Source of the DNA: an uncultured virus (IMG/VR IMGVR_UViG_3300035659_000006)
Taxonomy: Duplodnaviria > Heunggongvirae > Uroviricota > Caudoviricetes
IMG/VR virus record: IMGVR_UViG_3300035659_000006
Strand: one strand, 5' to 3'
DNA length: 20,000 bases
Every line of letters begins with the position of its first letter. Within the stretch, counting starts at the first letter, position 1. The position numbers and the translations under genes were made by a program. Shown piece after piece: positions 3,716 through 20,000 of the stretch. The notes beneath the pieces are model-generated. The model had not been told where the DNA came from. It made no database searches and saw only the letters and a list, made by a program, of their open reading frames with translations.

Positions 3716-3742
3716 GTGACGCTAGACGCTACGCGGCGTCAC
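3716..3742. promoter_or_regulatory. Inverted repeat GTGACGC-N13-GCGTCAC (hairpin or operator)
   Basis: Perfect 7-bp arms just after the protease stop and upstream of the terminator. Confidence 0.4.
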
Positions 3743-3745
3743 GTC

Positions 3746-5481: not shown

Positions 5482-5921
5482 CGGTTCCCTCCATGCAAGC
5501 CTTTGAGCGCCAGCCGGAATCCTTCGCGGAGGGCTCTCTCCTCATCTGAGATTGACGGCGAGCCACGGCCCTCTCGGCGATTTCCCCGAATAACCTGTCG
5601 CTGGGCGAGGAATTCAAGAGCCAGCCAAGCTTGATCGGCCTTACCGACCATGTAACGACGGCAGCGCTCCAGCATGTTAGCTGCCGCTGCTTGCCCTGCC
5701 GACCAGGCCCACAGCTTGCCCTGTCGGCAGACAGAGCCACCGAACAGCGCGAGAAGCCGTTCCACCATGTTGCGGCTTGAGTTGACAACGACCACAGCGA
5801 CTTGGTGCGTCCCGTAGACCTTCCCGCCACGGAATTGAATCCCGATATAACCTTCGCCATCGAGAATGCCTGCGGCCCACGCCAAATCAGTGGCCCTGAG
5901 TCTCATGGCCGGAAACGGCAT
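5478..5921 (-). mobile_element. Free-standing single-motif LAGLIDADG homing endonuclease gene
   Basis: DLAWAAGILDGEGYI, V.VVNSS..MVERL..LFGGSV, W.W, YMVGKADQA; GGAGGT SD. Confidence 0.9.
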
Positions 5922-5982
5922 GGCTCACCTCCAAGGCTAGCCTAGAAAGGCGGGGCGCTCAGCACAAAGCCTCGCGTGGCAA

Positions 5983-6153
5983 CTACTTCTCGGCTGGCCA
6001 GCACCAGCGGCACTTGTGCCAGCGCGGGTCCAGTCCGTCGGCCTCGCCCCGGCGCTTGATGTCGTCCGTGTTGCAGCGTTCACTCAAGCCCGCCCGCCGG
6101 TGCACGACCACGCGCAGCCCGAACCAGGTCTTGTTCAGGATGTACGGCTTCAT
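5983..6153 (-). CDS. Small hypothetical metal-binding protein (56 aa)
   Basis: Below the track cut-off; GGAGG SD; MKPYILNKTWFGLRVVVHRRAGLSERCNTDDIKRRGEADGLDPRWHKCRWCWPAEK (H...C...CxxC). Confidence 0.65.
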   Translation of the reverse strand: MKPYILNKTWFGLRVVVHRRAGLSERCNTDDIKRRGEADGLDPRWHKCRWCWPAEK

Positions 6154-6209
6154 CTTGGCCTCCTGGGAGCGCCCTCATGCGCTTCTCGACCGATCCGCCG
6201 CCAGAATCG

Positions 6210-6578
6210 CTACACGACGCCACGGCCGACCGGGACGGAGGATCTCCCAGACCTCGGCGCCATAGCAGGCCGCGACCTTACGAAGTATCTGGCGGTCCAG
6301 TCGCCGCCAAAGATGTCCTGGGCAGCGGCCACAACCCTCGCCCAGGGGAACGGCTGACAGGAGAAGCAGTCGACGAACGCCCTCGCGCCCTGAATGTGGG
6401 CCGATATATGGCTCTCGGCGATGACGACGAAGCCGATCCCGTGCGCCTCGTCGACCACCGGGCCGGCGATCACGGTCAGACCCGTAACCTCTACGGCCCT
6501 GTTCAGCCAGCGCAGGATGTCGCCTGGGTGAGACAAAACGCCTGAGCCGTCGGCCAACAGGTGATAGCCCTGGATCAT
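6210..6578 (-). CDS. speD: S-adenosylmethionine decarboxylase proenzyme (pyruvoyl-dependent, SpeD/SpeH family)
   Basis: G.HLLAD N-terminus, IAESHISAH autocleavage motif (E|SH), FVDCFSC catalytic Cys motif. Confidence 0.88.
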   Translation of the reverse strand: MIQGYHLLADGSGVLSHPGDILRWLNRAVEVTGLTVIAGPVVDEAHGIGFVVIAESHISAHIQGARAFVDCFSCQPFPWARVVAAAQDIFGGDWTARYFVRSRPAMAPRSGRSSVPVGRGVV

Positions 6579-6626
6579 CGGGTTCTCCAGACATCGCTCT
6601 CACCCCTCTCGCGGGACGCCGACCGG

Positions 6627-7442
6627 TCATTCGGCTGTCGCCTCCAGGTCACCGCCGAGCCACGGCGACTCAGGCCGCTCGCCCTCGTACTCGACCTCGA
6701 GGCTGTGGCAGCAGTTGACGTGCAGCGGGACGGCCCAGGTATAGCCCTCTTCCAGGGAGACCCACCCCTCGGCGACCAGGTCCTCGCAGGCCGGGCAGAC
6801 CGCGCTCTGTGGGTCAACCCGCGCCCTCCCCGTGAGGTGGTTCCGGTAGATGAAGTCCACCTGGGCGTAGTTGCGTGCCGTGCTGAGTTCGGTGGCGCTG
6901 ATGCCGGGCAGGTGCTTCTGCCAGCGTGCGGCGTCCCAATCCGCTAGCCTTTTTAGGTAGGTCGCCCGGTTCGCTGTAGGAACCTCCTCGGCTATGCGGG
7001 CGATCTGCCGGTGCATCTCGGCGTTGTAGGTGTCGCTGATGCTGCGGGCTGCGAACTGGGCCCGGCCCCGTAGGTCCGAGAGGACGGTCGGGTCGGTGAG
7101 CTTCAGGCTGCCAGCGAGGTCATAGCCCGCGGCCCGTGCCTCTTGGAGGATGGCTGCTCCGAAGTCGGTGCTCGCCTGCTCGAACAGCTCCTGCGCCAGG
7201 AGGTCCTCGTAGCCCGGGCCGACACTGAAGGCGTTGTAGACCAGCTCTTGGACGGCGGTGAGTGCCTGCTTGGACAAGGGTGCCGGGTAGGCGAGAGAGA
7301 GGATGCGGCTCTTTGTCTTGCAGTGCTCCTCGGTTGCGGCCATTAGCGCCGCGCAGTAGGCCGACGGGTCGTCCACCTTTCCCTGGTAGAACGCCTCACA
7401 ATCCGCGAAACTAGCGAACTGGCACCGATCACCGAAGGGCAC
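6627..7442 (-). CDS. Phage minor head/head morphogenesis protein (MuF / SPP1 gp7-like)
   Basis: C-terminal TELSTARN...CPAC..L...GW...PLHVNCCHSL; N-terminal FADC...DPSAYCAAL mini-domain; lies between portal and protease; AGGAG SD inside the end of the upstream HEG. Confidence 0.8.
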   Translation of the reverse strand: MPFGDRCQFASFADCEAFYQGKVDDPSAYCAALMAATEEHCKTKSRILSLAYPAPLSKQALTAVQELVYNAFSVGPGYEDLLAQELFEQASTDFGAAILQEARAAGYDLAGSLKLTDPTVLSDLRGRAQFAARSISDTYNAEMHRQIARIAEEVPTANRATYLKRLADWDAARWQKHLPGISATELSTARNYAQVDFIYRNHLTGRARVDPQSAVCPACEDLVAEGWVSLEEGYTWAVPLHVNCCHSLEVEYEGERPESPWLGGDLEATAE

Positions 7443-7920
7443 GAAGCACCTGCTCCTGTCGCCGTGGCGACAGCATTCCGTACAGTGACATCATCAGCCC
7501 GCGAGCGCGGGCCCCGGTAACTCGCCAATCGTAATAACTCGTGTTCCGATGCCGCTTGACTGACCCGCCGAAAGCCGCCCTCAGCCGATCCAGTGGCCAC
7601 CGCTGCTTCTGCCCAGCGGCCACAACCTCAGTCGTCGAGCGGCCGAACGTTCCCTCACCCTCCAGAAACCCGGCTGCCCACACGAAGTCGTCATGCGTGG
7701 CTGGTCGGAGCGGTGCAAGCTTCGGCCAGAGCCGCCCACTCGCCTTCTGAGCACAGCGTCGGCACCGCCGTCCCTCTCCGCGGGCTATCTCAGAGGGGTA
7801 CTTCAGCAGCTCCTTGCCGCACTCGCTGCAGTGCGTCAGGACCTGATATATGTAGCGGGCGTACGTTCCGTCCGCTCGGCGAGGCCCCGTACCCCTCTTG
7901 GTACGTTGCTCGAAGGGCAA
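7429..7920 (-). mobile_element. Free-standing LAGLIDADG homing endonuclease gene with an N-terminal zinc finger
   Basis: CSECGK...CRRCA, then DFVWAAGFLEGEGTF, Q...LDRLRAAFGGSV, YDWRVTG, LSPRRQEQ; TTG start with GGGGAG SD. Confidence 0.88.
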
Positions 7921-7921
7921 G

Positions 7922-8128
7922 CTACTCCCCCTCGCCCAGCGGCGGCGTCAGGAGCAGGCTCTCGCGGACCTGCACCATCTCCCAGGCAGCCCAGACAGAG
8001 AACACGAGCAGCGACCGCTCTCTCTCCAGCATCTCAGAGGCAACGACCAGTGCCGTCTCCGCCGCAAGCAACGACGCCAGCGCCTGCTTCAGCTTCACTC
8101 GCACTTCGCAGTTGCTTCCAAAGGGCAC
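7922..8128 (-). CDS. Hypothetical 68-aa protein whose N-terminus resembles that of the minor head protein
   Basis: MPFGSNCE versus MPFGDRCQ at 7442; no clear SD. Confidence 0.4.
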   Translation of the reverse strand: MPFGSNCEVRVKLKQALASLLAAETALVVASEMLERERSLLVFSVWAAWEMVQVRESLLLTPPLGEGE

Positions 8129-8157
8129 GTCGCACGCTCGCTACAGGCCCTGGGCCT

Positions 8158-8421
8158 TCACGACCAACGCTCGAACACCACCTTGCCCGCAGGGTCGGTC
8201 ACCCGGACATCCAGCGTCTCGAAGTGCCCGCCCTCGTCCATGCGTGGCGGCTCCGGCGCCGGCGTCACGCCAGCGGCGGCCCAGGCCCAAGCCCAGCCGT
8301 CGCCGAAGCCGACGACGTGCGGCACCCGCACCTGCTGGAACTTCAGGGCCAGCACCTGCTGCACGGCTTGGTACGCCATGTGGATGCGCTTCTTCATGTC
8401 GGCGTCGTACTGCACGACCAT
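8158..8421 (-). CDS. Hypothetical protein
   Basis: AAGGAGGT SD; fills the operon gap. Confidence 0.65.
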   Translation of the reverse strand: MVVQYDADMKKRIHMAYQAVQQVLALKFQQVRVPHVVGFGDGWAWAWAAAGVTPAPEPPRMDEGGHFETLDVRVTDPAGKVVFERWS

Positions 8422-8433
8422 CGTCAGACCTCC

Positions 8434-8634
8434 TTACAACTGCCTGCCGCAGTACCGGCAGCTCGTCGGGCCGTTCTGATAGAGCATCTGCCAGCGCCCG
8501 CAGTGGCTGCACTTCACCGAGCGGCTGTAGCTACCGCCCAGCGGCGACGGCGCTCCGGGCCCATAAGGTGCCACCGGCGGCCTGACTCGCAGCGCCATGC
8601 GGGCGGCTCTTCCCTTGACCCAGCGCTTGCCCAA
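8434..8634 (-). CDS. Small zinc-ribbon protein
   Basis: CSHCG...CRYCG; abuts the upstream stop; start uncertain. Confidence 0.55.
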   Translation of the reverse strand: MGKRWVKGRAARMALRVRPPVAPYGPGAPSPLGGSYSRSVKCSHCGRWQMLYQNGPTSCRYCGRQL

Positions 8635-8636
8635 CG

Positions 8637-9035
8637 TTACTTCGCCTCCGCTGCTGACAGTGCCCGCAGCTTCGGCTTGGGGCCGGGCTTTCGCGATCCC
8701 TCTCGTCTCTCGCCAAGGAGCCGCTCTCCCTTGAGCACCTTCAGGGCTCTGGCGATGCGCCGCACCTGCTGCCTTCTCAACTTCGCCTCCCTGCGGTAGG
8801 CGGCCACATGGCTGTCGGCGCGGCTGGCGATGTTCTGCACAAGCTCCAGGGCCTTGGAGACCAGGTCAATCAACTGCTCATAGGGGTCGCGGGCCGGTTC
8901 ACTGGGCGAGGGCTGCAGGGCGGGTGACGGGCGGTGCCGCTGCCGGTAGCCACACTGGAGGCAATAGTCCTCATTCTCCATGGTATCTAGCGCCAACTGG
9001 CCGTTGTGGCAGTGGGGGCACGGTACGTTCATCAT
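8637..9035 (-). CDS. Zinc-ribbon plus coiled-coil/basic protein
   Basis: CPHCHNG...CLQCGY N-terminus, helical basic C-terminus; starts 3 nt after the portal stop. Confidence 0.75.
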   Translation of the reverse strand: MMNVPCPHCHNGQLALDTMENEDYCLQCGYRQRHRPSPALQPSPSEPARDPYEQLIDLVSKALELVQNIASRADSHVAAYRREAKLRRQQVRRIARALKVLKGERLLGERREGSRKPGPKPKLRALSAAEAK

Positions 9036-9038
9036 CGG

Positions 9039-10685
9039 CTACAGGCCCGGTATTTCGGCCTCCTCCAGGCTCTGCAGGCGCTCCTTGCGCGACTGGTCGT
9101 TGAGGGCCGTCAGCCGCTTCAGCCTGTCCTTGTAGCGCTCCGCAGCCCAGGCGGGCAGCTTCGCGGCGAAATCCGCCTTCTCGACGTTCAGCAGGTCGTC
9201 GAAGAAGGAGCGCACCGCCTCTGAGTCGGGGCCCAACTCCGCGAGCCTAACCGCTATTGTCTCCATGACATCGGCGGGCAGGACCTCGGAGCGGAACGAG
9301 CGGGGTGGTGCCTCGCCCTTTGCCACGCGCGTCGCGAAGCGTTTCCAGCGACGCAGCTCGTCGACTTCGGCCTGCGAATTTTCGGGCGCCCGAAAATCGC
9401 GCTTCTCAGCCTCCTCACCGACGACCTGAGCGTTCGCTGGCATGTAGAAGCGCTCGCCGCCAGGATAGCCAGGTTTGCCCCGCTTGGCCCGCTCCTCGTT
9501 CGGATTGCTCAAGCCCCACTGGACACGGCGGACACCATTCGTCGTCTCCGTCGTGTCATCCCCAAACGTGGGCCGGCGGAAGCGGAACAGCCAGTTGCGG
9601 ACGCCAATGCCCTTGAACCAGAGGTTCAGCGTCTCTTCGACCGGCTCCTGGAGAGGGCGGGACTCCTGGCGATATACGATCTCGATGAGCTGTTCGAGGG
9701 TACTCCTGTTGATATCTTCCACGGCGCCAAGGACCCCGGCGGGCGTCCCCACCACGCTGAGCATCTCATCGCGGTTGAACTTGCGACCCCTGAGGTACTC
9801 CTGGTCGCGCCCAAAGGCCTGCCCGAACGCCTTGTACTCCGCCAGGCCCTGGATCGCTGCGAACGCCTTGTTGGCGTTCTCGACGCCGCCGTAGAGGTTG
9901 TCCAGGACTTCGCGGTTCTCGCGCATGATGTCCTCGCTGAGATCGGGGGCGAAGACAAAGGCGCCAGGGGGAGTTCGGTTGTTCTTAAAAGTATTGCGAT
10001 TCCAGACCTGCGAGTACAAATCAGTCGTAGCAGCCATTTCCAGCGACTCCAGGTCAGAGACGCCCAGGCGCCCGTCCACGTCGGGGATCTCAAAGCGGAT
10101 CACTTCGTCCTGGGCAAACGTCTGGCGCCCGCCCGGCATGACCTGGACGTAGGCCTCGTCGCGGCTCAGGAACTGGCCGAAGCGGTCCACCTTCGGGAGC
10201 ACCATCCCGAACATGACCTGGAAGTCGATGACATCGCCGAAGCCGTTGGGCACGATCTCCCAGTAGACCTCCGACAAGAGCTTGAGGCGGGCAAAGGTGA
10301 CATAGAACTTCTGCCTGGGTAGGCTCCACTGCCTGATGTTGACGACGTCGCCGATCTCCGGCTCGAAGAGGCGGGTGAGGAAGGCGAGTTCATCCTCCGC
10401 GGTGGCATCCTGCTCCTGGTCCGAGGGCACGAACTCCCAGCCTTCCGAGACGGCGATGTGGGCGATGCGGCGGATGCCAGCCCGGACCCAGGACTCACGG
10501 CGCCAGAGGCCCAGCAACTCCTGGCGGCTCACGTAGGGGCTGCCAATGCCGGCCATGCCGACCAGGCCGCTCAGTCCTCCGACACCCGGCAGCATGCCGG
10601 AACGGATGCGCGGCTGATCCTTCTCGCTCTTTTCGACGGTTTGCTGGCGGTAGGAGTCGGGGACCCAGATCGAGACCTCGGCCAT
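9039..10685 (-). CDS. Phage portal protein
   Basis: WVRAGIRRIA, EVYWEIV, DEVIRF, G.SDLESL, FKNNRTPPG, YGGVENA, DQEYLRGRKFNRDEM..V.G.P, NPNEERAKRG..GYPGG (HK97/PBSX-type portal motifs). Confidence 0.95.
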   Translation of the reverse strand: MAEVSIWVPDSYRQQTVEKSEKDQPRIRSGMLPGVGGLSGLVGMAGIGSPYVSRQELLGLWRRESWVRAGIRRIAHIAVSEGWEFVPSDQEQDATAEDELAFLTRLFEPEIGDVVNIRQWSLPRQKFYVTFARLKLLSEVYWEIVPNGFGDVIDFQVMFGMVLPKVDRFGQFLSRDEAYVQVMPGGRQTFAQDEVIRFEIPDVDGRLGVSDLESLEMAATTDLYSQVWNRNTFKNNRTPPGAFVFAPDLSEDIMRENREVLDNLYGGVENANKAFAAIQGLAEYKAFGQAFGRDQEYLRGRKFNRDEMLSVVGTPAGVLGAVEDINRSTLEQLIEIVYRQESRPLQEPVEETLNLWFKGIGVRNWLFRFRRPTFGDDTTETTNGVRRVQWGLSNPNEERAKRGKPGYPGGERFYMPANAQVVGEEAEKRDFRAPENSQAEVDELRRWKRFATRVAKGEAPPRSFRSEVLPADVMETIAVRLAELGPDSEAVRSFFDDLLNVEKADFAAKLPAWAAERYKDRLKRLTALNDQSRKERLQSLEEAEIPGL

Positions 10686-10765
10686 GCCTAGACCTCTGGC
10701 TGCTTGGAGCGGGGATAGGCGACGCAGTAAGCGACGGACACGAGCCGGAACCTCTAGCCGACAGC

Positions 10766-11059
10766 CTAGCGCGTGGTTTCGCCTGCCCCTACTCTCTGTT
10801 GGCGCAGTCGCCTGATGATCTTGCTGACGGTGTCGGGCCTGAGACCGAGACGGCGGGCGATCTCCCTCCGGGCTAAGCCGGAATCATGGAGGCGCAGAAC
10901 CTCAGCCCCACGTTCGGCCACACGCAAGCCGTAGGTGCCCTGGGGCAGGTCGTAGCGACAAGCCGCCAAGGGACAGGTCAGGCAGGAGCCGTGCTCCTCA
11001 CAGCCGTCATCCCGGCGGTCCAGCTTCTCAGGGCGCGCTGTATACTGCCGCTTGCCCAT
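10766..11059 (-). CDS. Cys-cluster plus helix-turn-helix regulator (true start probably ATG 11059, not 11443)
   Basis: MGKRQY...DDGCEEHGSCLTCPLAACRYD followed by SGLARREIARRLGLRPDTVSKII HTH; GAGGTGG SD. Confidence 0.8.
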   Translation of the reverse strand: MGKRQYTARPEKLDRRDDGCEEHGSCLTCPLAACRYDLPQGTYGLRVAERGAEVLRLHDSGLARREIARRLGLRPDTVSKIIRRLRQQRVGAGETTR

Positions 11060-11456
11060 CTCGCCCCACCTCAGCAAGCCCAATCCGCTCATCGCTCCAT
11101 ACGCAGTTCGGAAAGCCATGCACTGGCCCGCCATACGGAAAGTTGCGACAGGTTGCCGGCCGCTTGGAGTAGATCGTGCACGTCGCAGGCTGGCCCGGCT
11201 CCCGAGACAGCCAAGGGCAGGCGAAAAGGCTCGGCTGGCGCCCCACTTCGTCCGGCTCACCATAGGGGCCAAGCTCGACCAGCTCGGCCACCCACCACCT
11301 CTCAGGGCCGGCCCAGTCCTTATCGAGCCACGCGAGCATTTGCTCCTTCGTGCCTGGCAAATGGAACCGCTCACAGCACTCACCACAACGGTTGCACTGA
11401 ATGGCCTCGAACTCCTGCCGGTTAACCGTCCGTAGCGACGCAAGATGCTTGCCCAT
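11028..11456 (-). CDS. YkgJ-family cysteine cluster (CxxCxxCC) protein
   Basis: CNRCGECC...CPWL...CTIYSKRPATCRNFP...C. Confidence 0.85.
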   Translation of the reverse strand: MGKHLASLRTVNRQEFEAIQCNRCGECCERFHLPGTKEQMLAWLDKDWAGPERWWVAELVELGPYGEPDEVGRQPSLFACPWLSREPGQPATCTIYSKRPATCRNFPYGGPVHGFPNCVWSDERIGLAEVGRDGQAAVYSAP

Positions 11457-14117
11457 CTACACCGCCTTTATCCGCTGCCCGCGGCTCTCCAGCCGACAGG
11501 CGGCAAATACCCGGAGGCAGTCGGCGCCATCATCTGGGTTACTCCGGCCCGTATTATCCGCTGGCTCCTCGGCATAGATGCCCGAGCTGATCTGCTTGCG
11601 GTGATACTGGCCCATATCTCGCCGGAGCCAGCGGCAGCGCGGATGCACCAGGAGGCCCCGGTGGCCCTGTGCGTCCCGAATCATGCGCCGGACCTCCTTC
11701 ACCCCGTCCACCACGCCGGTCTTCGTGGGAACCTTGACGGGCACGCCGAGCTGGCGGATGTAGGACTGAAGCTGCTTATCGGTCGAGCCGCAAAATGCGC
11801 TCGAAGGCTTGCGGTAGGCGCGGGCCTGGCCCGTGAGCTCGGCCTTGCGCCCCTCCTCCCAGGTGGTCTCCTGCCAGTACCAGATGCCCGTCTCGCGGCC
11901 AGCCGCGTCCAGCTCGCGCTTCTCCGAGAGCCACTTCACGACCTCCTCGTAGAGGGTCATGTTCGTGTACATCTCGTCGAAGACGTGGACCTGGCCGTTT
12001 GGCATCTCCTGGGCCGCCAGTAGGACCATCGGGTCGGGCGAGAAACCGTCGTCGCCAAGCCAGACTACAGGCACGCCGTCGGTATACTCTGCCTCCTCCG
12101 TCACGTTGGAGTCGGGGTCGCCGGGGGCGTCCACCCAGTTCTCGTAGACCAGGCCCTTGCGGGAAACGGTCCGACATAGGGACTGGCAATTCCACGTGTC
12201 GTCATCTGACTGCAGCCGCCGGTTGATCGCATCCGCCTTCTTGATGTGGCCCGTTGCCTCGCGGACCCGCCCCTGGCAGTCCTCCCAGAGCAGGCAGTCG
12301 TGGGGCTTCATCTCGACGCCGCGCTTCACCCGCTCGGCGTCCTCGCAGGTGGCGCAGGGCTCCATGCAGTCCAATAAGCAGCTCGCGTAGACCGCGATCC
12401 CGCGGGCCGGTGCCTCGGTCAGCAGCCGGTTCATCGGGCCGAACGATGTCACCATGGCGGAGGCATAGAGCGTCTGGGCCGGGTAGCGGTCGCTGGACAT
12501 GGGCATCCCGACGAACTGCTGGTAGACGTCCCAGGCCATGAGGTCGAACTCATCGGCGACGCAGAAATTGGGGTGGGGGCCAGAGGTTGCGCCGATGGTG
12601 TTCCCCACAAGCAGACCCGAGCACAGAGCGTAGTTGTGCGTCCCCTCGACCGTGATGTCGTAGCGCCAGTAGCGCCTCGCTGTCCTCTCCAGGCGGCCTA
12701 TCCTTACGGGCACGGCACCGAAGCCGCTGTGCTGAGTGATCGGGCCGCCGCGCCACCGTTTGTACCCCTGTCCCTTGGGTCCCTTCGTTGACACATCGAT
12801 CCACGGCGCGACCAGTTCCGTTAGCCTTGCACTCCCAGGACTGCTACAGCAATACTCGTACCTCTCACCCGTCTTGCTCGCAGCCGGCCGCCATCGGCCT
12901 GTGACGCCCAATCGCCGGAGATAATCGCCTGCGGCCTCACGCTCGCCTCGGTCAAATGACATGGCGCAGATTTTCCAAAAGCCAGTCGGGCGGCCACGAC
13001 CGTGCCATGGGCCACTCACCGAATAGCCGCCATCATCCATGACCCAGACAGCCAGACCGAGCCGACTGAGTCGGGCGAAGGTCCCCAGCGGTATTCTCTT
13101 GACGCCCGTTCCATACCAGTCGCGGCGGGCTAGGCTAAACGGCAGCGCCGCCCCGCTCTCCCACGCAAAGGTTGCTTTGGCCGGGCGATCAGCCACCGTA
13201 CCGCCAAACTCACTGAAAACCTCAACTATCCAGTCGAGGTAACTTCGCTGCCAGTAGGCATGGCTAACCCGAAGAACGCCCGCATTATCCTTAACCGAGC
13301 CGTCTCCAAGCATCAGCCCAAGCAGAACCTGCGCTTGCTCGTCCGAGAGTATTTGCCCATGCACGAGCACCTCGTCACCCTCTGAGAGACAGCCGAGTGG
13401 AACCTTGCGGCCACCAGGTACGACGACCTCGTGGCCGGGGGTCAGCTTGAAGTCGCTCGGCCCGCGTTTTCCTGGGTCGAGGCGTCCTCGGATCCACTCA
13501 GTCGTGGGGCCGTTGCTGAACCAGTCAACAATCCGCCGCCATTGCCATTCACCGAGGCCAAAGTCATATGAGAGAACTGGCCCTGGCAGTCTCTTTGCTA
13601 CGATCTCTTCGATGCGAACCGGCCCATCAGGGGTGATGACTCTCTGGTAGCCCGGCAGGCACCCAGGGAGCACTTCCAGCCGGCTCCCGTTCTTCCAGCG
13701 CGTCTCCGACATCAGCGGGTCCTGGGCCAGGGCCCGGCGGAAGTGTGGGTCGCGGAAGTACTCCTTCAGGTAGCTGTAGTTGAGGTTAGCCTGGCGCTGG
13801 ATGGCACCAACGTGGGAGGTCTGGAAGCCGTCACGGTAGTGGTGGTCAAGGAGATGCAGGATGGACAAGTCGCGGGTCTTTCCAGAGCCTCGGGCCCCGT
13901 GGACAGCGGCCGAGGATACGCGACCGAAGTACATGTCGGCGAGAAACCGGAACGGCGCTACGTGTTCCGGGCAGACGGCCCGCCAGGCGATGTGGAAGCC
14001 CAGGATGTACCAGATCCAGTACCAGAGCTGCTCGTCGGTCTGGGGCCCGATCTCCTTGAGCCGCCGGAGGGATGCGACCGCCCGTTCGCGCTGGTACTGC
14101 TCAAGAGCAGTGCTCAC
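11457..14117 (-). CDS. terL: Terminase large subunit, intein-containing (about 532 aa after splicing)
   Basis: Walker A GARGSGKT, Walker B CVADE, nuclease motifs DDGFSPDP, VFDE, GLLVHPRC, DDGADCLR; lies upstream of portal. Confidence 0.93.
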   Translation of the reverse strand: MSTALEQYQRERAVASLRRLKEIGPQTDEQLWYWIWYILGFHIAWRAVCPEHVAPFRFLADMYFGRVSSAAVHGARGSGKTRDLSILHLLDHHYRDGFQTSHVGAIQRQANLNYSYLKEYFRDPHFRRALAQDPLMSETRWKNGSRLEVLPGCLPGYQRVITPDGPVRIEEIVAKRLPGPVLSYDFGLGEWQWRRIVDWFSNGPTTEWIRGRLDPGKRGPSDFKLTPGHEVVVPGGRKVPLGCLSEGDEVLVHGQILSDEQAQVLLGLMLGDGSVKDNAGVLRVSHAYWQRSYLDWIVEVFSEFGGTVADRPAKATFAWESGAALPFSLARRDWYGTGVKRIPLGTFARLSRLGLAVWVMDDGGYSVSGPWHGRGRPTGFWKICAMSFDRGEREAAGDYLRRLGVTGRWRPAASKTGERYEYCCSSPGSARLTELVAPWIDVSTKGPKGQGYKRWRGGPITQHSGFGAVPVRIGRLERTARRYWRYDITVEGTHNYALCSGLLVGNTIGATSGPHPNFCVADEFDLMAWDVYQQFVGMPMSSDRYPAQTLYASAMVTSFGPMNRLLTEAPARGIAVYASCLLDCMEPCATCEDAERVKRGVEMKPHDCLLWEDCQGRVREATGHIKKADAINRRLQSDDDTWNCQSLCRTVSRKGLVYENWVDAPGDPDSNVTEEAEYTDGVPVVWLGDDGFSPDPMVLLAAQEMPNGQVHVFDEMYTNMTLYEEVVKWLSEKRELDAAGRETGIWYWQETTWEEGRKAELTGQARAYRKPSSAFCGSTDKQLQSYIRQLGVPVKVPTKTGVVDGVKEVRRMIRDAQGHRGLLVHPRCRWLRRDMGQYHRKQISSGIYAEEPADNTGRSNPDDGADCLRVFAACRLESRGQRIKAV
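12600..13661 (-). mobile_element. Intein (354 aa) with a two-motif LAGLIDADG endonuclease
   Basis: VLPG|CLPGYQRVITPDG start, TPGH block B, LGLMLGDGS and LAVWVMDDG motifs, YDITVEGTHNY...LLVGN|T end. Confidence 0.95.
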
Positions 14118-14395
14118 TCGTCGACCTCGGATGCCTCCAGCCCCGACAGAAACGCCAAGCCCTCCTCGGGACTCAGGATTCTGAGCAGCCGGCCGTCCTG
14201 CAGCTCTATGTCGCCTTCGGCCCGGCCATGCCCGCAGCAGGAGCCGCGCATGTCCACGCCACCTCTCTGCAGAGCGTCTACCAGAGGAGCGATGCAGCGG
14301 TCTATCTGAGCCAGCTTCCAGTGCGCCTGGCCATTGCAGGCGAGGTCCGCCGAGATTGTCACCAGGACGGGGACGGTGTCACCCCACTTGCACAT
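14114..14395 (-). CDS. Conserved-looking phage protein with an SCCGHG motif
   Basis: IDRCIAPLVDAL..GGVDMRGSCCGHG; AGGAGG SD; GTGA overlap with terL. Confidence 0.75.
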   Translation of the reverse strand: MCKWGDTVPVLVTISADLACNGQAHWKLAQIDRCIAPLVDALQRGGVDMRGSCCGHGRAEGDIELQDGRLLRILSPEEGLAFLSGLEASEVDE

Positions 14396-14448
14396 CGGGT
14401 GCCTCCTGGGACCATCGCTTTCACGTTTTACGGAAAGTGTGCAATCGC

Positions 14449-14724
14449 CTACTCCCGGCGTACCGGGGCGCGCCTGGGCATCGGCCGTCGCCTGGGGCCT
14501 CGACCTAAGGGCGCCTTCTGGATCGGGACCGAACCCGCCGAGGCCAGCGGCACCGCCGCCCAGCCGTTGTCAAGGAGCTGCAGGCGGCCGCCGCGCTCCA
14601 TCAACCGGAGCAAGAGCGGCACCTCGGCCTTCTCCGTCCTAGCCGCGACCGCCAGCGCCTCGCTTTCGGTCTTCGCTTCCACCAGTTGGTCGATCACCAC
14701 GCGATGGCGTACTCGCCACTTCAT
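14449..14724 (-). CDS. Hypothetical protein
   Basis: GGAGGT SD; VEAKTESEALAVA motif. Confidence 0.6.
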   Translation of the reverse strand: MKWRVRHRVVIDQLVEAKTESEALAVAARTEKAEVPLLLRLMERGGRLQLLDNGWAAVPLASAGSVPIQKAPLGRGPRRRPMPRRAPVRRE

Positions 14725-14736
14725 CCTTGACCTCCC

Positions 14737-14886
14737 TCACGCCCACTCTCGGGCGCACTCCATGAGCCAGCGCCTCATGCGCCGTCTCCAGCGCCGGTGT
14801 CGCAACCGCCTCCAGAACCGGGCCATCCGCGGGTGCCGGTTGTGCGGACCTCCCCAGCCCAGGACCATCCACTGCCGGGCGTTCAT
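14737..14886 (-). CDS. Small Arg/Trp-rich protein (49 aa)
   Basis: Hand translation MNARQWMVLGWGGPHNRHPRMARFWRRLRHRRWRRRMRRWLMECAREWA; its stop abuts the next SD. Confidence 0.45.
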   Translation of the reverse strand: MNARQWMVLGWGGPHNRHPRMARFWRRLRHRRWRRRMRRWLMECAREWA

Positions 14887-14895
14887 TCAAGAACC

Positions 14896-14925
14896 TTGAC
14901 CTCATCTGGCATTCTTTGTTACGCT
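14896..14925 (+). promoter_or_regulatory. Sigma70-type promoter for a leaderless antisense gene
   Basis: TTGACC (14896-14901), 18-nt spacer ending in TGn, TACGCT (14920-14925); ATG at 14933 has no SD. Confidence 0.55.
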
Positions 14926-15073
14926 CCGTTACATGAAGCCTGTCTGCCCTGACTGCGGCTGTGGGAATGGGAAGCACAACCGATTCTGCCCACGGGGATA
15001 CACGGGCAGCCCGCCCAAGGCCGTCGGAGCCCCGCCGAAACGCAGCGTTACTCCGCCTGTAACGGAGCGTAAC
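14918..15073. repeat. 16-bp perfect inverted repeat GTTACGCTCCGTTACA (14918-14933) / TGTAACGGAGCGTAAC (15058-15073), plus an extra GTTAC box at 15047
   Basis: Read directly. Confidence 0.9.
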
Positions 15074-15193
15074 GATGTTCCCTGCGCTTGTGGCTGCGGG
15101 CAGACGGTGAAGGCGCGGCCCGTGTACTTCAACGCAGCCTGTCGGGTGCGGGCTGCGAGGAAGCGGAAGGCGTCAACAGCCCTCCCCGGTTGA
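14933..15193 (+). CDS. Small zinc-finger DNA-binding protein, antisense to the operon
   Basis: CPDCG...H...C; CACGCG...YFNAACRVRAARKRK (treble-clef/CGNR-like basic helix); fits the gap between minus-strand genes. Confidence 0.7.
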   Translation: MKPVCPDCGCGNGKHNRFCPRGYTGSPPKAVGAPPKRSVTPPVTERNDVPCACGCGQTVKARPVYFNAACRVRAARKRKASTALPG

Positions 15194-15197
15194 ACCT

Positions 15198-15872
15198 TCA
15201 CTCCACCACCTTCGCCTCGCCCTCGAACACCGGGCCCAGTTGCGGCGGCTCGCGACCCGTGCGCTTCTGGAAGACAGCCGCCACCACGGCGGTGATCTCG
15301 TCGTCCGTGGGCTCACCGAGCGGCGGCGTGCCGAGAGGCAGGAAGACGCCGAACTGGGCCGAGCCGCCGGGCCGGGGGTTCAGGCCGATGTCCTGGCCGA
15401 TGCGCCACAACATGTCGCCCACGCGCAGCAGAGTCTCGACGGCCTTGTCCACGCCGGGCATTGGGGCAGGCAGTCCTTCCTCCGTCTCAGTCGCCCGCGC
15501 CAGCCGTTCCTCCGCCAGCCGGTAGACCTGTTGTAGCGAGCGGAACAGGTCGACCTTGACATCGAGATCCTTGAGCTTCCGTTCGACCAAGCCGGCGGGC
15601 AGTATGTCCCCCGGTGGCATGTGCCGGTCCCGCCAGCGGGTGATGGTCCGGGCAGAGGGGAGCGGTGCCTTCTCCAAGAGGTCTCCGTACTGCCAGCGGA
15701 GCATACCCACGATGGTCTCGGAGCTGAAGCGGTGACACAGGAAGTCGCGGATTTCGTCGAAGAGGGGATGGGCCTCGACCGACTCGCCGAACCGATCCTC
15801 GGCTCCAGCCGGGAGTCCTATCTTCTCAGCGTCGGGGGTCTTCTTCCGGCGGGGCAAGCAGCACCCTTTCAT
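15198..15872 (-). CDS. HTH-like protein, candidate terminase small subunit
   Basis: VEAHP..DEI..FL....S.ETI...L...PSARTITRWRDRH followed by oligomerisation-like helices; upstream of terL; start may be the downstream TTG (MPRRKK). Confidence 0.5.
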   Translation of the reverse strand: MKGCCLPRRKKTPDAEKIGLPAGAEDRFGESVEAHPLFDEIRDFLCHRFSSETIVGMLRWQYGDLLEKAPLPSARTITRWRDRHMPPGDILPAGLVERKLKDLDVKVDLFRSLQQVYRLAEERLARATETEEGLPAPMPGVDKAVETLLRVGDMLWRIGQDIGLNPRPGGSAQFGVFLPLGTPPLGEPTDDEITAVVAAVFQKRTGREPPQLGPVFEGEAKVVE

Positions 15873-15918
15873 GTCCTCAGGTGGACACGTCCATCTTGCC
15901 CGACGGGGTAGAGAGCCT

Positions 15919-16425
15919 CTAAGACTGTGGTGGCAACGTGCCTACATAGGCGAGGAGGGAGTCAACGATCTTGGGCGGCAGGCCGAGAGCAAGAAGCTGC
16001 TGCTTCAGAACGACGTTGACGTTCACGTTGAAAGCCGGCTGCTCCACCCGGAGCCCGAAGCCGGAGGCCAGTCTCATCATCTGGTCCATCGCCTTGTTGG
16101 CGATCTGGAGGTAGGGGGATTCAACGAGGTTCTGGGACTTCGTTTTGATGACCGGGCCGTACTCGGCCACCTTCTGTAGCGCGTGGCGCCAGGTCGACCA
16201 GGCTTCGCAATAGAGGATGAGAGCGTTGGTGTCGATCTCGGTTACGCCCGCGTCATGGAGTCGCTTGCCGGTCCGTTCCCATTCACTCTTCGCCTCTGGT
16301 GTCAGCCAGTCGGGGACGGGCGGAAGCGTCAGATCGCCCTCAGCGGCAGCGGGTGGGACTATCTCTTCGACACCAGCGGCCTTCTTGGGGACGGGAAGCG
16401 TCGGTTTGGGCTTGCGGCCTTTCAA
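15919..16425 (-). CDS. terS: Terminase small subunit, P27 family
   Basis: GRKPKPT, P..PDWL..EAK.EW.R, D...L..YCEAW, G.VIKT....SPY..IA......M..LA..FGL. Confidence 0.88.
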   Translation of the reverse strand: MKGRKPKPTLPVPKKAAGVEEIVPPAAAEGDLTLPPVPDWLTPEAKSEWERTGKRLHDAGVTEIDTNALILYCEAWSTWRHALQKVAEYGPVIKTKSQNLVESPYLQIANKAMDQMMRLASGFGLRVEQPAFNVNVNVVLKQQLLALGLPPKIVDSLLAYVGTLPPQS

Positions 16426-17234
16426 GGGATAGTCCCCTTTGTTTGGAGCGCCGGGGTCGGAGTTGCACCGCCCTCTTCCGCCTGGATAGCGGACGTGTCG
16501 CTGGTTTCACTTCCGACGCTCATGGACTCCTCGACCATGTCCAACAAGAGCATCATCGCCGTTGCGCCGTTGCGGACGTCGCGCTCTGCCATCTTCTCGG
16601 CTAGGGCGTTCAGGAGCCGGTCATGCTCGGCCCACCGCGCCAGGATAGTCGGAGTCTTGATGTCGGCCTGGACCTTGTCGAGCATGGAGAGCAGCCGCTC
16701 CACCTCCTCCGGCAGAAACGCAAACGAGATCACATGGTAGTCCAGGGGAATGTCAGTTAGGGCCTGGGGCTCGATAGAAGCCAGTTGCAAAAGGATCCCG
16801 TCGTCGAGACCCGAGTATTCCTTGAGGACCACATCGTCGATCTCGTTGAACAGCTCCCGCAGGATAACCGAGTCGTCTTCTCCCACGATGGCGTTGTGCG
16901 ACAACTGCTTCGCCACCTCTTCGCCCCTGGTCATGTCATCGGTGATGACCAGCACGGCGAGGCGCTGGATGCCAGCCTGCTTAGCTGCCATGACGCGGTG
17001 ATTCCCTGAGATCACCCGGAGCTTGCCATCGGGGAGTAGCCGGCAGAGTGGGACGCTTTCGACCCGGCCATCGTGCTTGAGGTTGTCCACCAGGGCACCG
17101 AAGGTGGCGGCGGACATCATGCGGGCGTTCTTCTCAAGAAGTTGCAGCTCGTCTATGCTGGCGTATCTGAGGGTCAGGCCATCAGGGAGACGCAGACTCA
17201 GTTCGTCGATGTCCCGTGGTTTTGCAGCCACCAC
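16422..17234 (-). CDS. ParB/Srx N-terminal domain protein
   Basis: KNARMM..ATF..LVDNLK.DG....P...VISGNHRVMAA, QLSHNAIVGEDD; AGGAGG SD. Confidence 0.85.
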   Translation of the reverse strand: MVAAKPRDIDELSLRLPDGLTLRYASIDELQLLEKNARMMSAATFGALVDNLKHDGRVESVPLCRLLPDGKLRVISGNHRVMAAKQAGIQRLAVLVITDDMTRGEEVAKQLSHNAIVGEDDSVILRELFNEIDDVVLKEYSGLDDGILLQLASIEPQALTDIPLDYHVISFAFLPEEVERLLSMLDKVQADIKTPTILARWAEHDRLLNALAEKMAERDVRNGATAMMLLLDMVEESMSVGSETSDTSAIQAEEGGATPTPALQTKGTIP

Positions 17235-18508
17235 TCTAGTCCCTCCTGGAGCGTCCAGCGCCCAAGCTCGCCGACATAGTTTAGATGCCCCTCCTTGCGA
17301 GAGTGGAGTTTGTAGATACCCCGATACTTCATACTAACAGGCTTGTCCGTGAAAGCCGTAGTCCCGATGGTCTTCGCCCTGGCAACCATCCCACCATCCG
17401 ATAGCGAGAGCCTAAGCTCCCGGGACAGACTCGCGGCCAGCACGAGCTTGCCCAGGCGTCGATAGCGATGGTGGGGCACGGACACGTCGCACATCATGTA
17501 GAGATCCCCAAGCTTCATTATTGAACGGGAAAAGGACAGGAGCCCGACGAGGTAGTCGTCCAGCATGACGGCGAACATGAATTGTGGCTGGCCGGGTATG
17601 ATGTTCTTGCCGAGAAGGCAGTCGCGAAGCCAGCGGAAGGCGGGCGCGTCCAGCTTCATCAGGCGGAGTTTGCAGGAGGGAGAGATCTCGGCCTGCGGGG
17701 GCAGCCTCTTCAGGTGGGGGTCGCGGGTGATCTCCCTTCTTTTGGCCAGGCGGGTGTGGGCGAGGCCCCCGTAGCAGTAGACGGGACGCTTTCGCAGAGA
17801 TGGCACGGCGATGCCGACGAGGTGGTCCCGGAGATCCTCGATGAGGTGGTCGTTGAATAGGAGCCAGTAGCGCCGGCTGGTGAGAATCCCTATGAGCTGG
17901 GCCATGCTTGAGTCGTCGAACATGCGATAGGAGGGCCGCTCTTGCCAGTCGAAGACCTTGTCCATGTTCTTGTAAAGCCGCTCGTATCCGCCCTTGTAGG
18001 TTGGCGGGGCAGTCATGATTCCAGCGTCGGCGGGAGCCGCGGAGAGGTGATCGATCACGTCGCCGGCGTAGTAGGAGGCGACTTTCACGGCACCGAGGGC
18101 CTTCTCCGCCTTTGCCTTTGTCCCCTCGTGCATCTCGCGGAAATGGTCGCGGTATGCCCCCACGTAGCGCAGCCAGTATTCGGAGTCCTTGCCGTAGCCT
18201 TGCAGCATCGAGGTGCAGAGCAAAAGGGTGGCCACGGTGTCGAGCGGTGCCTTTAGGTAGGGTTCCAGCCAAGCGTACTCCTGGTCCTTGATGGCAAGGG
18301 CCAGGGCATCCCCCGTTAGGTAGGCCCCGATAGCGGAGCTGTAGAGGCTGACATCGTTGGAGTGGCACTTGACGGGGACGGATGAGAGGGCGCGTTCGAG
18401 GCCGAAGTTGCCGGAGCAGCCCACATAGACGTCGGAGACCGACCAGTCTCGGACCGCCTCCAGGGCCATCGACTTGAGAGGAAGGGGCAGACCACCGATG
18501 AAGGGCAT
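17198..18508 (-). CDS. Putative DNA modification enzyme: adenine methyltransferase-like domain fused to a GNAT/Mom-like domain
   Basis: VYVGCSGNF (motif I-like), HSNDVSLYS, APPTY (DPPY-like); C-terminal VGLLSF...RLGKLV...TTAFT..PVSMKYRG. Confidence 0.65.
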   Translation of the reverse strand: MPFIGGLPLPLKSMALEAVRDWSVSDVYVGCSGNFGLERALSSVPVKCHSNDVSLYSSAIGAYLTGDALALAIKDQEYAWLEPYLKAPLDTVATLLLCTSMLQGYGKDSEYWLRYVGAYRDHFREMHEGTKAKAEKALGAVKVASYYAGDVIDHLSAAPADAGIMTAPPTYKGGYERLYKNMDKVFDWQERPSYRMFDDSSMAQLIGILTSRRYWLLFNDHLIEDLRDHLVGIAVPSLRKRPVYCYGGLAHTRLAKRREITRDPHLKRLPPQAEISPSCKLRLMKLDAPAFRWLRDCLLGKNIIPGQPQFMFAVMLDDYLVGLLSFSRSIMKLGDLYMMCDVSVPHHRYRRLGKLVLAASLSRELRLSLSDGGMVARAKTIGTTAFTDKPVSMKYRGIYKLHSRKEGHLNYVGELGRWTLQEGLEWWLQNHGTSTN

Positions 18509-18525: not shown

Positions 18526-18867
18526 CTATGCCGGCAGGCAGCTCAGAGCTAGCTCCGGCACCGATATGCCGAGCTCACGCTCAAGCCATTCCGCCACGAC
18601 GCGGCGGTGGCAGAACTCCCCGGGCTTCTCCCAGCAGAGAAGGATGGCATCCTCGCCGAGGGCCTCTACCGTGGCCCTAGCGTCCAGCCGCTCCAGTTGG
18701 GTCATGAACGTCTTGCGGAAGACCGCCTCGTCGGGCTCTTTCACCAGCGCCCAGGTCGCCGGTGCTAGGGGCATATACCTGCGGCCCTTGAACCCTTTCG
18801 GCACCCCCCTGCTGATGGCGACAGCGTTGGGGTCCGTTCCTGAGAGTTTGAAGTTTGAGGTCTGCAT
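18526..18867 (-). CDS. DUF488-family protein (true start probably ATG 18867, not 19140)
   Basis: MQTSNF, AVAISRG.P, LAP..W, AILLCWEKPGEFCHRRVVAEWL; TGATG coupling with parB; GGAGG SD. Confidence 0.85.
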   Translation of the reverse strand: MQTSNFKLSGTDPNAVAISRGVPKGFKGRRYMPLAPATWALVKEPDEAVFRKTFMTQLERLDARATVEALGEDAILLCWEKPGEFCHRRVVAEWLERELGISVPELALSCLPA

Positions 18868-20000
18868 CAGACCGTCCTCCCTGCAAGCGTCCGGCCATTG
18901 TGAGCTGCGAGCGCCCGGCGCATCCCCGTGAGACTCTTGATCAGGGTGTCGAGATAGGACATGGCCGTTTCCATCTCTGGTGCCAGGGCTTCGGCTATCT
19001 GGCCCGTCTCGACACCTGCCAATTCCTGCGCCGCCTTTGCCGCCAGGACTAGCGCCCGATGGTAGGCCGCGACCGCCTGTCGGGCCCCTTCGGAGAGTTT
19101 GGTCTCGGGCATCATGTCGGCCTGGTTTTCCTCCATCCATAGCTGGTCGCAGATGCCCCTAACCCCGTCGTCGCCCAGGCCCTTCTCCTGCCAGATCCGT
19201 AGCACCCGTGCCTGGCTGTTCAGGCTCAGCTTCGCCATATAGTAGGCGATCCCCGGCTTCATCTGGCCACGACCGATTAGGTACTGGACATCCTCGCGGA
19301 GGTTCAGCAGGGCTACTCTCCACGTTATCTGGCTGGCCGGCAAGCCCACCAGCGCCCCGACCTCCTGGAGGGACATCGGCCGCGCCAGGAGCTTGGCGAG
19401 CATCCTTGCCTCTTCCATCGGGTTGAGGTCTTCCCTGACCGCGTTCTCCAGAACCGCCAGCTCATAGGCCTCGTCGTCGGTGAGCTCGCGAACGAGAGCG
19501 GGGATGGTTTCCCAGCCGGCCAGTTGCGCGGCCCGGAAGCGCCGCTCGCCGGCCACGATGCAATAAGCAGCGCTAATGAATTCGGAGGCCGTTGCGTCGT
19601 TTGTCTGGCAGACCAAGGAGGCGGGCGCGATGCCTGATAGCCGTGATCGTTCGGCTGAGCAGGGATGAGATATGACCTTCGGAGAGAATGCCCCAGTTGG
19701 CTTCGATGAAACGGTCCTCCGAGGGCTCCCATCTATATCTGGCGTCTGGAGGAACGACCGCGAGCGCTCGCAGGGCCGCTTCTCTCTTGACATGCAGATA
19801 GGGCAACAGAGTCGAGAGTAGAAAGCGAACTCGTCGAGCCCGGTTGACGTTCCAATGCCACTGATTGTGCTCCTCTCCCCGCTTGCTCCAGTGCTTCCGC
19901 TGGCAATTGACTCGCCCGAAGCCCCAACTGGATTGCAGCCATAAGCAGAGCGACTCACCGTCGTTGACTTCGCCCTGCGAGATGGAACAGAGATATCGGT
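18867..20000 (-). CDS. parB: ParB/RepB/Spo0J-family protein, 5'-partial, with a long insertion that overlaps a homing endonuclease gene
   Basis: YCIVAGERRFRAAQLAG...IPA.VR...A.LEN..REDLNPMEEA plus HTH from 19565 downward; the same frame has no stop from 20000 to 19566. Confidence 0.8.
   Translation of the reverse strand, partial: TDISVPSRRAKSTTVSRSAYGCNPVGASGESIASGSTGASGERSTISGIGTSTGLDEFAFYSRLCCPICMSREKRPCERSRSFLQTPDIDGSPRRTVSSKPTGAFSPKVISHPCSAERSRLSGIAPASLVCQTNDATASEFISAAYCIVAGERRFRAAQLAGWETIPALVRELTDDEAYELAVLENAVREDLNPMEEARMLAKLLARPMSLQEVGALVGLPASQITWRVALLNLREDVQYLIGRGQMKPGIAYYMAKLSLNSQARVLRIWQEKGLGDDGVRGICDQLWMEENQADMMPETKLSEGARQAVAAYHRALVLAAKAAQELAGVETGQIAEALAPEMETAMSYLDTLIKSLTGMRRALAAHNGRTLAGRTV
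19573..19998 (-). mobile_element. LAGLIDADG homing endonuclease (5'-partial) with a C-terminal Myb/HTH-like domain, nested out of frame inside parB
   Basis: Hand translation from the edge: RYLCSISQGEVNDGESLCLWLQSSWGFGRVNCQRKHWSKRGEEHNQWHWNVNRARRVRFLLSTLLPYLHVKREAA...RWEPSEDRFIEANW...LSRTITAIRHRARLLGL; the namesake motif itself would lie beyond the edge. Confidence 0.82.

Follow-up and report, generated by a model that had tools for sequence, protein, structure and literature searches.

A putative LAGLIDADG-family endonuclease gene nested out of frame in viral parB genes whose host reading frame is kept open

The parB gene at the end of a 20,000-nucleotide (nt) stretch of DNA (the window) from an uncultured virus of the Caudoviricetes (IMG/VR record IMGVR_UViG_3300035659_000006) carries an insertion that holds a second gene, for a putative LAGLIDADG-type homing endonuclease, in a different reading frame. 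The ParB frame passes through the insertion without a stop codon. The same layout recurs in four further lineages, where the element occupies a structurally equivalent hairpin turn of divergent ParB/Srx genes, and near-identical ParB alleles differ in whether they carry it. The element is not an intron and not an intein. The codons of the nested endonuclease genes are chosen so that the host frame holds no stop, and we are highly confident that selection keeps this frame open.

In the window, the downstream part of parB occupies 18867..19565 on the minus strand, beginning at the YCIVAGERR Tyr, continuing over the GERR motif and the ParB helix-turn-helix (HTH) and ending with the stop codon; it was identified by Pfam and by 88–91% identity to five uninterrupted ParB proteins (P0003–P0007). 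It forms the last 233 residues of a 377-residue open reading frame (ORF) at 18867..20000(-), whose 5′ end is open at the window edge. The remainder of this ORF, 19566..20000(-), is what the ParB frame yields from the 3′ part of the insertion; these 145 codons, out of about 196, contain no stop and encode a sequence rich in Ser, Gly, Thr, Ala and Arg. The endonuclease ORF at 19573..19998(-), with 141 amino acids and a 5′ end likewise open at the window edge, lies in ParB frame +2 (equivalently, ParB is the +1 frame of the endonuclease). Its TAG stop at 19575-19573 is separated by 7 nt from the Tyr codon at 19565-19563. At this 3′ junction (19573..19577(-)), the TAG is made up of the T that closes host codon ATT and the AG that opens AGC; host codons GCT GCT follow, then Tyr, and the junction reads ...EFISAA/YCIV. 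The Pfam ParB_N model matches at ORF residues 144-186 (E=2.9e-14, 53.3 bits, cut-off 26.3) with profile positions 51-93 of 95 only, and HTH_ParB matches with E=1.3e-9 (38.6 bits). The N-terminal half of the ParB_N domain, missing from the window ORF, is seen in the relative P0008 and, as a separate stretch, in the relative L008, both described below. A preliminary description, made from the letters of the window alone, had reported a LAGLIDADG-type ORF ending 7 nt before YCIVAGERR, a Ser/Gly/Thr-rich ParB frame open for 145 codons to the window edge, and the absence of the N-terminal ParB strands at this site. The positions and Pfam matches given here agree with all three observations.

The nearest record to this genome, G001, covers window positions 1-17749 only. 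Searches of viral contigs (by exact pattern and with the window endonuclease ORF, P0001), of metagenomes (with the P0008 insert) and of phage records (by blastn) gave no matches extending the locus. No matches came from viral contigs searched with the relatives P0123 and P0236 or from metagenomes searched with P0123. Metagenome contigs identical to the window bridge the 3′ junction in X2 and X3, and others cross the window end in X3 and X6; these alignments showed no joints and no loose contig end at the junction that could be interpreted.

Evidence that the insertion is a discrete element came from a protein search with the ParB part of the window ORF. The five uninterrupted proteins found in this way have 286 amino acids and read VRPV-NSH-YQVV, with three residues at the insertion site. 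P0008, a protein of 413 amino acids ended by its contig, is 93% identical to the whole window ORF and has 196 residues at the same site. It reads MNETLG...QPRQEFDKEKLEDLARSLEDKGLLQPITVRPV, 196 stop-free residues, and then YCIVAGERR, all in one frame that includes the ParB N-terminus; over the 145 insert codons present in the window, identity to the P0008 insert is 90%. In DNA alignments with the uninterrupted loci L002 and L003, homology resumes at GTGGCCGGCGAGCGG, and the few codons preceding this point have diverged. The preliminary description had proposed checking for a ParB N-terminus in frame with, and open across, the endonuclease gene, and aligning parB homologues free of the insertion. 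The latter are P0003–P0007, and the former is seen in P0008, a relative and not this genome, and in the four further lineages.

The first of these lineages, P0123, was found with the N-terminal 290 residues of P0008. It is a protein of 497 amino acids whose ParB parts are only about 35–40% identical and whose insert of 195 residues lies, in continuous frame, between an identical QPITVRPV and VRVVAGERR. Its four cluster mates come from other contigs and are all complete at 497 amino acids, making the insert open in five of five. The same N-terminal search could have seen C-terminal ParB fragments of at least 227 amino acids, and none was found. Further lineages came from viral contigs scanned with an alignment of 12 endonucleases (an alignment of 26 members was too diverse), which gave 64 loci. 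In the three best matches, L008, L009 and L010, the +1 frame is stop-free across the endonuclease and spans 486, 409 and 370 codons, respectively. The host frame of L008 is a ParB (...ITVRPV, 184 residues, YEIVGGERR) with Pfam ParB_N in two separate stretches. The host of L009 and L010 is a small protein with ParB_N only (...GWTQPIVIRE, 206 residues, EIIDGYHRW). Uninterrupted relatives of the L009 host have 170-186 amino acids and read GWTQPIVVRED-MEIVDGYHRW; one of them, P0389, has 2 residues at the site where L009 has 206. A scan of species genomes gave 24 loci. The best, L072 of Mesorhizobium sp. WSM3860, lies in a provirus-like region and is a ParB gene with the nested gene of L008 (endonuclease 98% identical); its host frame spans 471 codons. 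The two loci ranked next, L073 (Streptomyces carpinensis) and L074, lack nesting, and their +1 frame is broken by stops.

In all five lineages the insertion site is the turn of a β-hairpin of the ParB/Srx domain, flanked by the strands QPI.V and x-E/x-I-V-x-G-x-[RH]-R. The insert-bearing host frame is single and open in each of P0008, P0123, L008, L072, L009 and L010, and the nested endonucleases of the five lineages share only 34–42% identity. A tree built to ask whether the nested members form one clade had an unresolved backbone, with 19 of 33 inner branches open. A separate observation concerns L066-L070, five near-identical viral loci with a distant family member that has one stop in its +1 frame (e.g. 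L066 2342-2854). In L066, a 189-codon +1 ORF at 2484-3050 extends past the 3′ end of the family member; it might overlap a downstream gene in part, or represent nesting of a different kind.

Assignment of the shifted ORF to the LAGLIDADG family is based on its homologues and on a profile match to I-MsoI and I-CreI, not on Pfam. An exhaustive HMMER search returned 331 homologous proteins at E<=1e-3 and 46 at E<=1e-10. The best, P0236, has 171 amino acids and 62% identity, and its residues 33-170 pair with residues 1-140 of the query. Because this alignment starts at residue 33, the complete gene would have about 173 codons, with the first ~32 outside the window, and the window ORF would represent approximately residues 33-173 and the stop. 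Full-length relatives start with M....P......YTAG[LFI].DGEGSI, carry LPYL[RH]VKR and end with at least one W..eD.....W......R....R...LG repeat. In the window, the corresponding C-terminal HTH module (residues 87-133 of P0001, pattern W..eD.....W......R....R...LGL) lies at 19600..19740(-). A profile (A6) of 26 family members, including the window ORF, was run against the PDB and matched I-MsoI (1.5e-15) and I-CvuI and I-CreI (6e-8 to 1e-6) over about 105 residues; PDB 6bcg, a "Ribosomal protein 3/homing endonuclease-like fusion protein", is also among the profile matches. PHROGs gave weak matches only, including phrog_323 in the HTH region, and many multi-repeat proteins align to query residues ~87-135 only. 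The HTH of relatives has weak Pfam matches to Sigma70_r4_2, HTH_AsnC and GcrA, which all fall under the cut-offs and support an HTH. The LAGLIDADG helix of this genome's endonuclease lies beyond the window edge, within the first ~32 residues; the motif reads YTAGLFDGEGSI in P0236 and AGFIDGEG or AGLIDGEG in L008-L010, and the P0008 host-frame sequence DCSMEKAAS appears compatible with L-[FL]-[YHND]-G-[EK]-[GS] in frame +2. The LAGLIDADG label of the preliminary description thus holds by profile, with the motif itself outside the window. Judged from these comparisons, the shifted ORF is best described as a single-motif, I-CreI-like LAGLIDADG endonuclease with a C-terminal HTH. I-CreI, I-MsoI and I-CvuI are homodimeric enzymes encoded in group I introns of algal chloroplast rRNA genes. 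The likeness to them includes the YTAGl.DGEGSI motif and the LPYL.VK helix. Unlike them, the family of the parB endonuclease has at least one C-terminal HTH repeat and is found free-standing or nested in phage and bacterial DNA.

The window contains a second, free-standing LAGLIDADG-type gene at 5478-5921(-), with 147 amino acids and the motif LAWAAGILDGEGYIG. It matches phrog_5046 at 3.8e-15 and Pfam LAGLIDADG_3 at only 0.13, and it shares 4 nt with the start of the next gene (5083-5481). BLASTP between the two LAGLIDADG-like ORFs of the window was not significant.

The insert, about 590 nt long, consists of a leader of 14-32 codons, as seen in relatives, and the ~173-codon endonuclease gene, which ends at the 3′ edge of the insert. 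The endonuclease ATG overlaps host codons xxA-TGG/TGC, with GGAG or AAGGA 9-11 nt upstream in L008 and L009. Its stop codon is xxT+GA or xxT+AG across host codons in L008, L009 and L010, as in the window, and in relatives it falls 1-3 host codons before the Y/E-x-I-V strand. A programmed frameshift was considered for expression of the endonuclease and rejected; no conserved slippery site can be inferred from the leaders, and the gene has its own ATG and a site resembling a Shine-Dalgarno (SD) sequence. The leaders also contain, in the host frame and outside the endonuclease ORF, a motif [ILF][FLW].PCG[HV] in four of the five lineages (L009 2385-2482; L010 2448-2488; P0008 residues 51-70; P0123 residues 57-74); it is absent from L008 and L072.

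The strongest evidence for selection on the host frame came from the codon context of the endonuclease genes. Among the 64 viral loci, the three nested members have no stops in the +1 frame, the other 61 have 1-25, and the median of all 64 is 10; open frames of this kind are not common in the family. The preliminary description had stated that its proposal would be refuted if codon shuffling showed such frames to be common. A stop in the host frame requires that the endonuclease have NTA or NTG before a codon starting with A, or NTA before a codon starting with G. In the four nested genes for which DNA is available, 5 of 89 NTN codons have A or G as their third base when a purine starts the next codon, compared with 25 of 66 when a pyrimidine does (Fisher one-sided p=5e-7). 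Since the host frame of all four genes has no stops, the five exceptions are NTG followed by G (host TGG). No such bias is present in 49 non-nested relatives (667/1342 before purines, 388/844 before pyrimidines, p=0.96). These 49 are the 61 non-nested viral loci less 12 that were left out by eye, of which L027, L034, L038, L045, L047, L048, L061 and L067-L070 are apparent near-duplicates and L039 is cut by its contig. In the window alone, the counts are 0 of 13 before purines and 9 of 22 before pyrimidines (p=0.007).

Comparisons between relatives indicate which of the two frames is constrained. The second position of a host codon corresponds to the third of an endonuclease codon. P0008 and P0123 agree at 84 of 111 comparable sites (76%) for host position 1 and at 65 of 140 (46%) for host position 2; between the window and P0008, determinable changes number 2 of 98 at host position 1 and 12 of 116 at host position 2. 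For the overlap of L008 and L072, the Nei-Gojobori ratio of nonsynonymous to synonymous differences (pN/pS) is 0.12 for the endonuclease frame, against 3.7 for the host frame and 0.06 for the ParB exons. These values show purifying selection on the endonuclease frame and host-frame residues that are free except for the ban on stops. The same pair of loci bears on mobility. Synonymous divergence is 0.068 (8 changes) in the endonuclease (L008 2501-3004), compared with 0.34 and 0.19 (12 and 30 changes) in the flanking exons (2310-2450 and 3010-3704). A divergence 3- to 5-fold below that of the exons is what recent lateral spread by homing would predict.

The DNA beside the insertion site was also observed in metagenomes. 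Many unrelated contigs from four sediment metagenomes align to only a ~45-nt stretch of the window, 19515-19558, which encodes GERRFRAAQLAG, and the numerous loose contig ends at 19510-19560 belong to GERR regions of other organisms. DNA adjoining the insertion site is conserved across organisms, as is typical of homing sites.

Taken as a whole, the following account is, in our judgement, probably correct. Ribosomes starting at the parB start codon would read straight through the insert. The product would be a ParB with a loop of ~190 residues, unconstrained in sequence and probably disordered, in the surface hairpin next to GERR, where the fold would tolerate it. The endonuclease would be translated separately, from its own internal start. 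Acting as a homodimer and aided by its HTH, it is predicted to cut uninterrupted parB alleles at conserved coding sequence during co-infection, and repair would copy the element into the cut allele by homing. An AlphaFold2 model of P0123, built from an alignment of 40 ParBs, gave a predicted local distance difference test score (pLDDT) above 90 for the ParB parts, including the strands flanking the insert (51-58 and 250-256), and mostly below 50 for the insert. The model speaks to the plausibility of a tolerated loop and not to function. An overprinted, tolerated loop insertion in ParB was already suggested in the preliminary description, and it is now supported by the relatives and the codon bias; its read-through translation stays a deduction.

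Several points weigh against this account. Both translation through the insert and a working long ParB are predictions from sequence. For this genome, the ParB N-terminus and the first ~51 codons of the insert are presumed from P0008. The search that yielded P0008 and P0123 sees long ORFs only, and shorter, broken forms could escape it. At E<=1, no Pfam LAGLIDADG model matches the window ORF or P0236-P0238. Avoidance of hydrophobic residues in the loop was looked for and not detected: third-position T in the endonuclease codons is used as in GC-matched free relatives. The conservation of the L008 and L072 exons is no proof of ParB function after invasion, because the endonuclease is younger than the exons, and this conservation may predate the insert. 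Lastly, the window alone is statistically weak and does not prove stop avoidance. Codon shuffling, proposed in the preliminary description as a test, gave a divided result. When the endonuclease codons were redrawn from the usage of 12 window genes, a mean of 3.1 stops was expected (P(0)=0.023), but when its own synonymous codons were permuted within the window ORF, 41% of shuffles were stop-free (P(0)=0.41). The 12 window genes, used as controls, were as expected under both nulls. The case for selection is strong because of the relatives, not because of the window alone.

The alternative that fares best accepts that ParB is read through but proposes that the loop is then excised or nicked by proteases, or that two halves suffice, the active form being a two-piece ParB. 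The host-frame sequence is unconstrained and predicted to be disordered, such loops are protease-sensitive, and split host proteins occur beside endonuclease genes, as in phage Aeh1 nrdA/mobE. This proposal shares every sequence prediction with a ParB that keeps its loop; we regard it as unlikely, though not negligibly so.

A second alternative is that the insert is removed from the RNA by an unrecognised ribozyme or host factor, and that the open frame serves another purpose, such as avoiding polarity before splicing. Homing endonuclease genes inside protein genes are classically borne by group I introns, and covariance models detect described families only. However, Infernal with Rfam 15 gave no match in window 19300-20000 at E<=10, and in the complete loci L008-L010 it gave no intron at E<=1, only a chance microRNA match. 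Moreover, the endonuclease ORF and its 14-32-codon leader fill the insert to within 1-3 codons of the 3′ end and leave no room for a core outside the ORF, and a spliced element needs no stop-free host frame, yet selection maintains one. Splicing of the RNA is therefore quite improbable. Protein splicing finds no more support in the ends of the inserts. In the host frame they start with L, W, F, P or I, with no C, S or A at the start in any lineage, and they end AA/Y, AG/V, AV/Y, VS/E and IE/Y, without the HN+C/S/T of an intein C-terminus. The preliminary description had seen neither a group I core nor an HN or GN before C/S/T at the window junction, and both statements hold, the first also for the three complete inserts. 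A fractured gene with split inteins was rejected as well; the host frame is single and open, and intein halves would not fit. No lineage has a split host gene, with a stop followed by a restart; each shows one open host frame.

A third alternative treats the open frame as an incidental by-product, arising from a GC-rich composition or foreign codon usage, and holds that the insertion killed a dispensable parB. At 65% GC, the window contains numerous long spurious ORFs, and the permutation of synonymous codons described above is in keeping with this proposal. So is the free-standing gene at 5478-5921, which has just one stop in 147 +1-frame codons. The preliminary description had raised this gene as a caveat, and rightly: with 2.6 stops expected, its count is within chance (P=0.20). 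The gene shows no avoidance of NTG before purines. For comparison, 13 long window ORFs picked as likely genes have 137 stops in 4,422 +1-frame codons. Composition does not readily account for the relatives, however. In a Poisson regression of stop density on GC across the 49 non-nested loci, the probability of no stops was 0.012 for the window part, 0.008 for L008, 0.00017 for L009 and 0.0037 for L010. In L009, with a GC content of 47%, 8.7 stops are expected over 175 codons and none is present; the relative L073, at ~66-70% GC and 39% identity, has stops in +1. In addition, five lineages with endonucleases as divergent as those described are all in frame and open, and the codon bias is context-specific and absent from non-nested relatives. 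We consider the by-product explanation very improbable. Finally, host-frame PCG[H] and CP[IT]C each occur in four of the five lineages, which could suggest that the insert read in the host frame is a functional domain in its own right, such as a non-canonical intein or (PCGH...CPIC) a zinc-binding module, and that the shifted ORF is secondary. We find this hardly credible: L008 and L072 lack both motifs, CP[IT]C is what the +1 frame gives where CTG codons spell the conserved endonuclease LPYL, conservation is lowest at host codon position 2, the host-frame pN/pS is 3.7, the host frame matches ParB families only, and no lineage has C/S at the insert start or HN+C/S/T at its end.

The closest known parallel is the ShiLan domain, which adds 202 residues to the DNA methylase of a mycobacteriophage (Arsenault, Gosselin, Gogarten 2025, Genes 16:178; PMC11855218). 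According to the sections of that paper available to us, this insert has no host-frame stop and contains a hidden HNH gene in a third frame, which starts 18 bp into the insert and has its stop in the last four bases; there is no intron or intein signal, a loop is predicted, and a second such insert occurs in Pacc40 gp60 (PMC11855218). The work reported there is computational, and the authors call for reverse-transcription PCR and protein analysis. Like ShiLan and Pacc40 gp60, the parB element interrupts a phage gene at a conserved site with ~200 codons that leave the host frame stop-free, and it has a third-frame nuclease ORF that ends at the 3′ edge. As in ShiLan, the ORF starts a few codons in, intron and intein signals are absent, a loop is predicted, and the insert is present or absent among close relatives. 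The nucleases and hosts differ: ShiLan has HNH in methylase hosts, whereas the parB element has LAGLIDADG plus HTH in hosts that are ParB or ParB_N-only proteins. So do the proposed starts, which are an ATG with an SD-like site in the parB element and, in the ShiLan paper, a GTG with leaderless initiation. The codon-context test of selection against host-frame stops is made here, and no such test was met in the available sections of PMC11855218. Compared at the level of sequence, the parB element appears to be a variant of this out-of-frame kind of endonuclease insertion and not a relative of ShiLan. Among the papers listed by literature searches there was no LAGLIDADG or ParB example of a non-intein out-of-frame insertion, supplementary files being outside the search. 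The preliminary description had proposed a route distinct from introns and inteins; the absence of intron and intein signals supports this, but the principle had already been published in 2025 for a hidden HNH gene (PMC11855218).

Other known arrangements share some of these features. Overprinted endonuclease genes within true inteins, described in two preprints, likewise lie on a host-frame sequence that must stay open. In these intein cases the self-splicing intein removes the read-through sequence, whereas the parB insert is without intein blocks. LAGLIDADG genes have reportedly been fused in frame into fungal mitochondrial rps3, as "genes within genes" (a description attributed to Sethuraman et al. 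2009). As in the parB element, a LAGLIDADG gene lies directly in a protein gene with no intron or intein of its own. In rps3, however, the endonuclease is in the host frame and is made as a fusion, whereas the parB endonuclease uses a different frame from its host, whose own reading of the insert gives a junk loop. In phage Aeh1 nrdA/mobE and the T4 gene 60 bypass cassette, free-standing endonuclease genes split host genes. Fractured genes with split inteins are a further such arrangement, as described in the available part of Dassa et al. 2009 (PMC2677866). All of these likewise have an endonuclease gene inside a coding gene without an ordinary intron or intein, but their hosts depend on two ORFs, ribosome hopping or trans-splicing, while parB has a single uninterrupted frame.

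Observations on the neighbouring genes of the window are as follows. The gene after parB, at 18526-18870(-), has an ATG that overlaps the parB stop (TGATG). A listed ORF of 204 amino acids from 19140 is an upstream extension of this gene in another frame of parB; it matches phrog_2450, for which no function is assigned there, at 5.3e-18 over residues 92-196 only. Two genes downstream of parB, the ORF at 16422-17234 contains a sub-threshold ParB_N match at 16946-17158(-) (E 9.3e-4, 14.9 bits; G001 48469-48681), and it may encode a second ParB/Srx-like protein.

Loci of this kind are easily misannotated, both for the host gene and for the endonuclease. P0008 and P0123 are recorded as over-long "ParB family" proteins, with the endonuclease not called. 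In the annotation of the L009 contig, the host gene is recorded as its last 100 residues only (P0390), and the nested endonuclease as a protein of its own (P0281).

Homing endonuclease genes in essential genes are usually said to survive only by means of self-splicing introns or inteins. Out-of-frame inserts that are read through would be a third solution, one previously described, as far as found in the available sources, only computationally and only for HNH genes in methylases. The same solution now appears in a nuclease of unrelated fold (LAGLIDADG) and in hosts of another fold (ParB/Srx). A simple sequence test for such elements is supplied by the depletion of NTR codons before purine-starting codons. 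Because Mesorhizobium sp. WSM3860, which carries L072, is in culture, it would allow a direct test of read-through, of whether splicing is absent and of ParB function. A broader view can be offered only tentatively. Such inserts may be a general third route besides introns and inteins, reached independently by LAGLIDADG and HNH endonucleases. One clade might have specialised on the β-hairpin beside the cytidine triphosphate (CTP)-binding GERR/DG.HR motif across the ParB/Srx superfamily, targeting the most conserved coding sequence of the fold in proteins that are otherwise ~35% identical. The ~190-residue loop and its PCG[H] leader could, in turn, modulate the clamp function of ParB or couple expression of the endonuclease to translation of parB.

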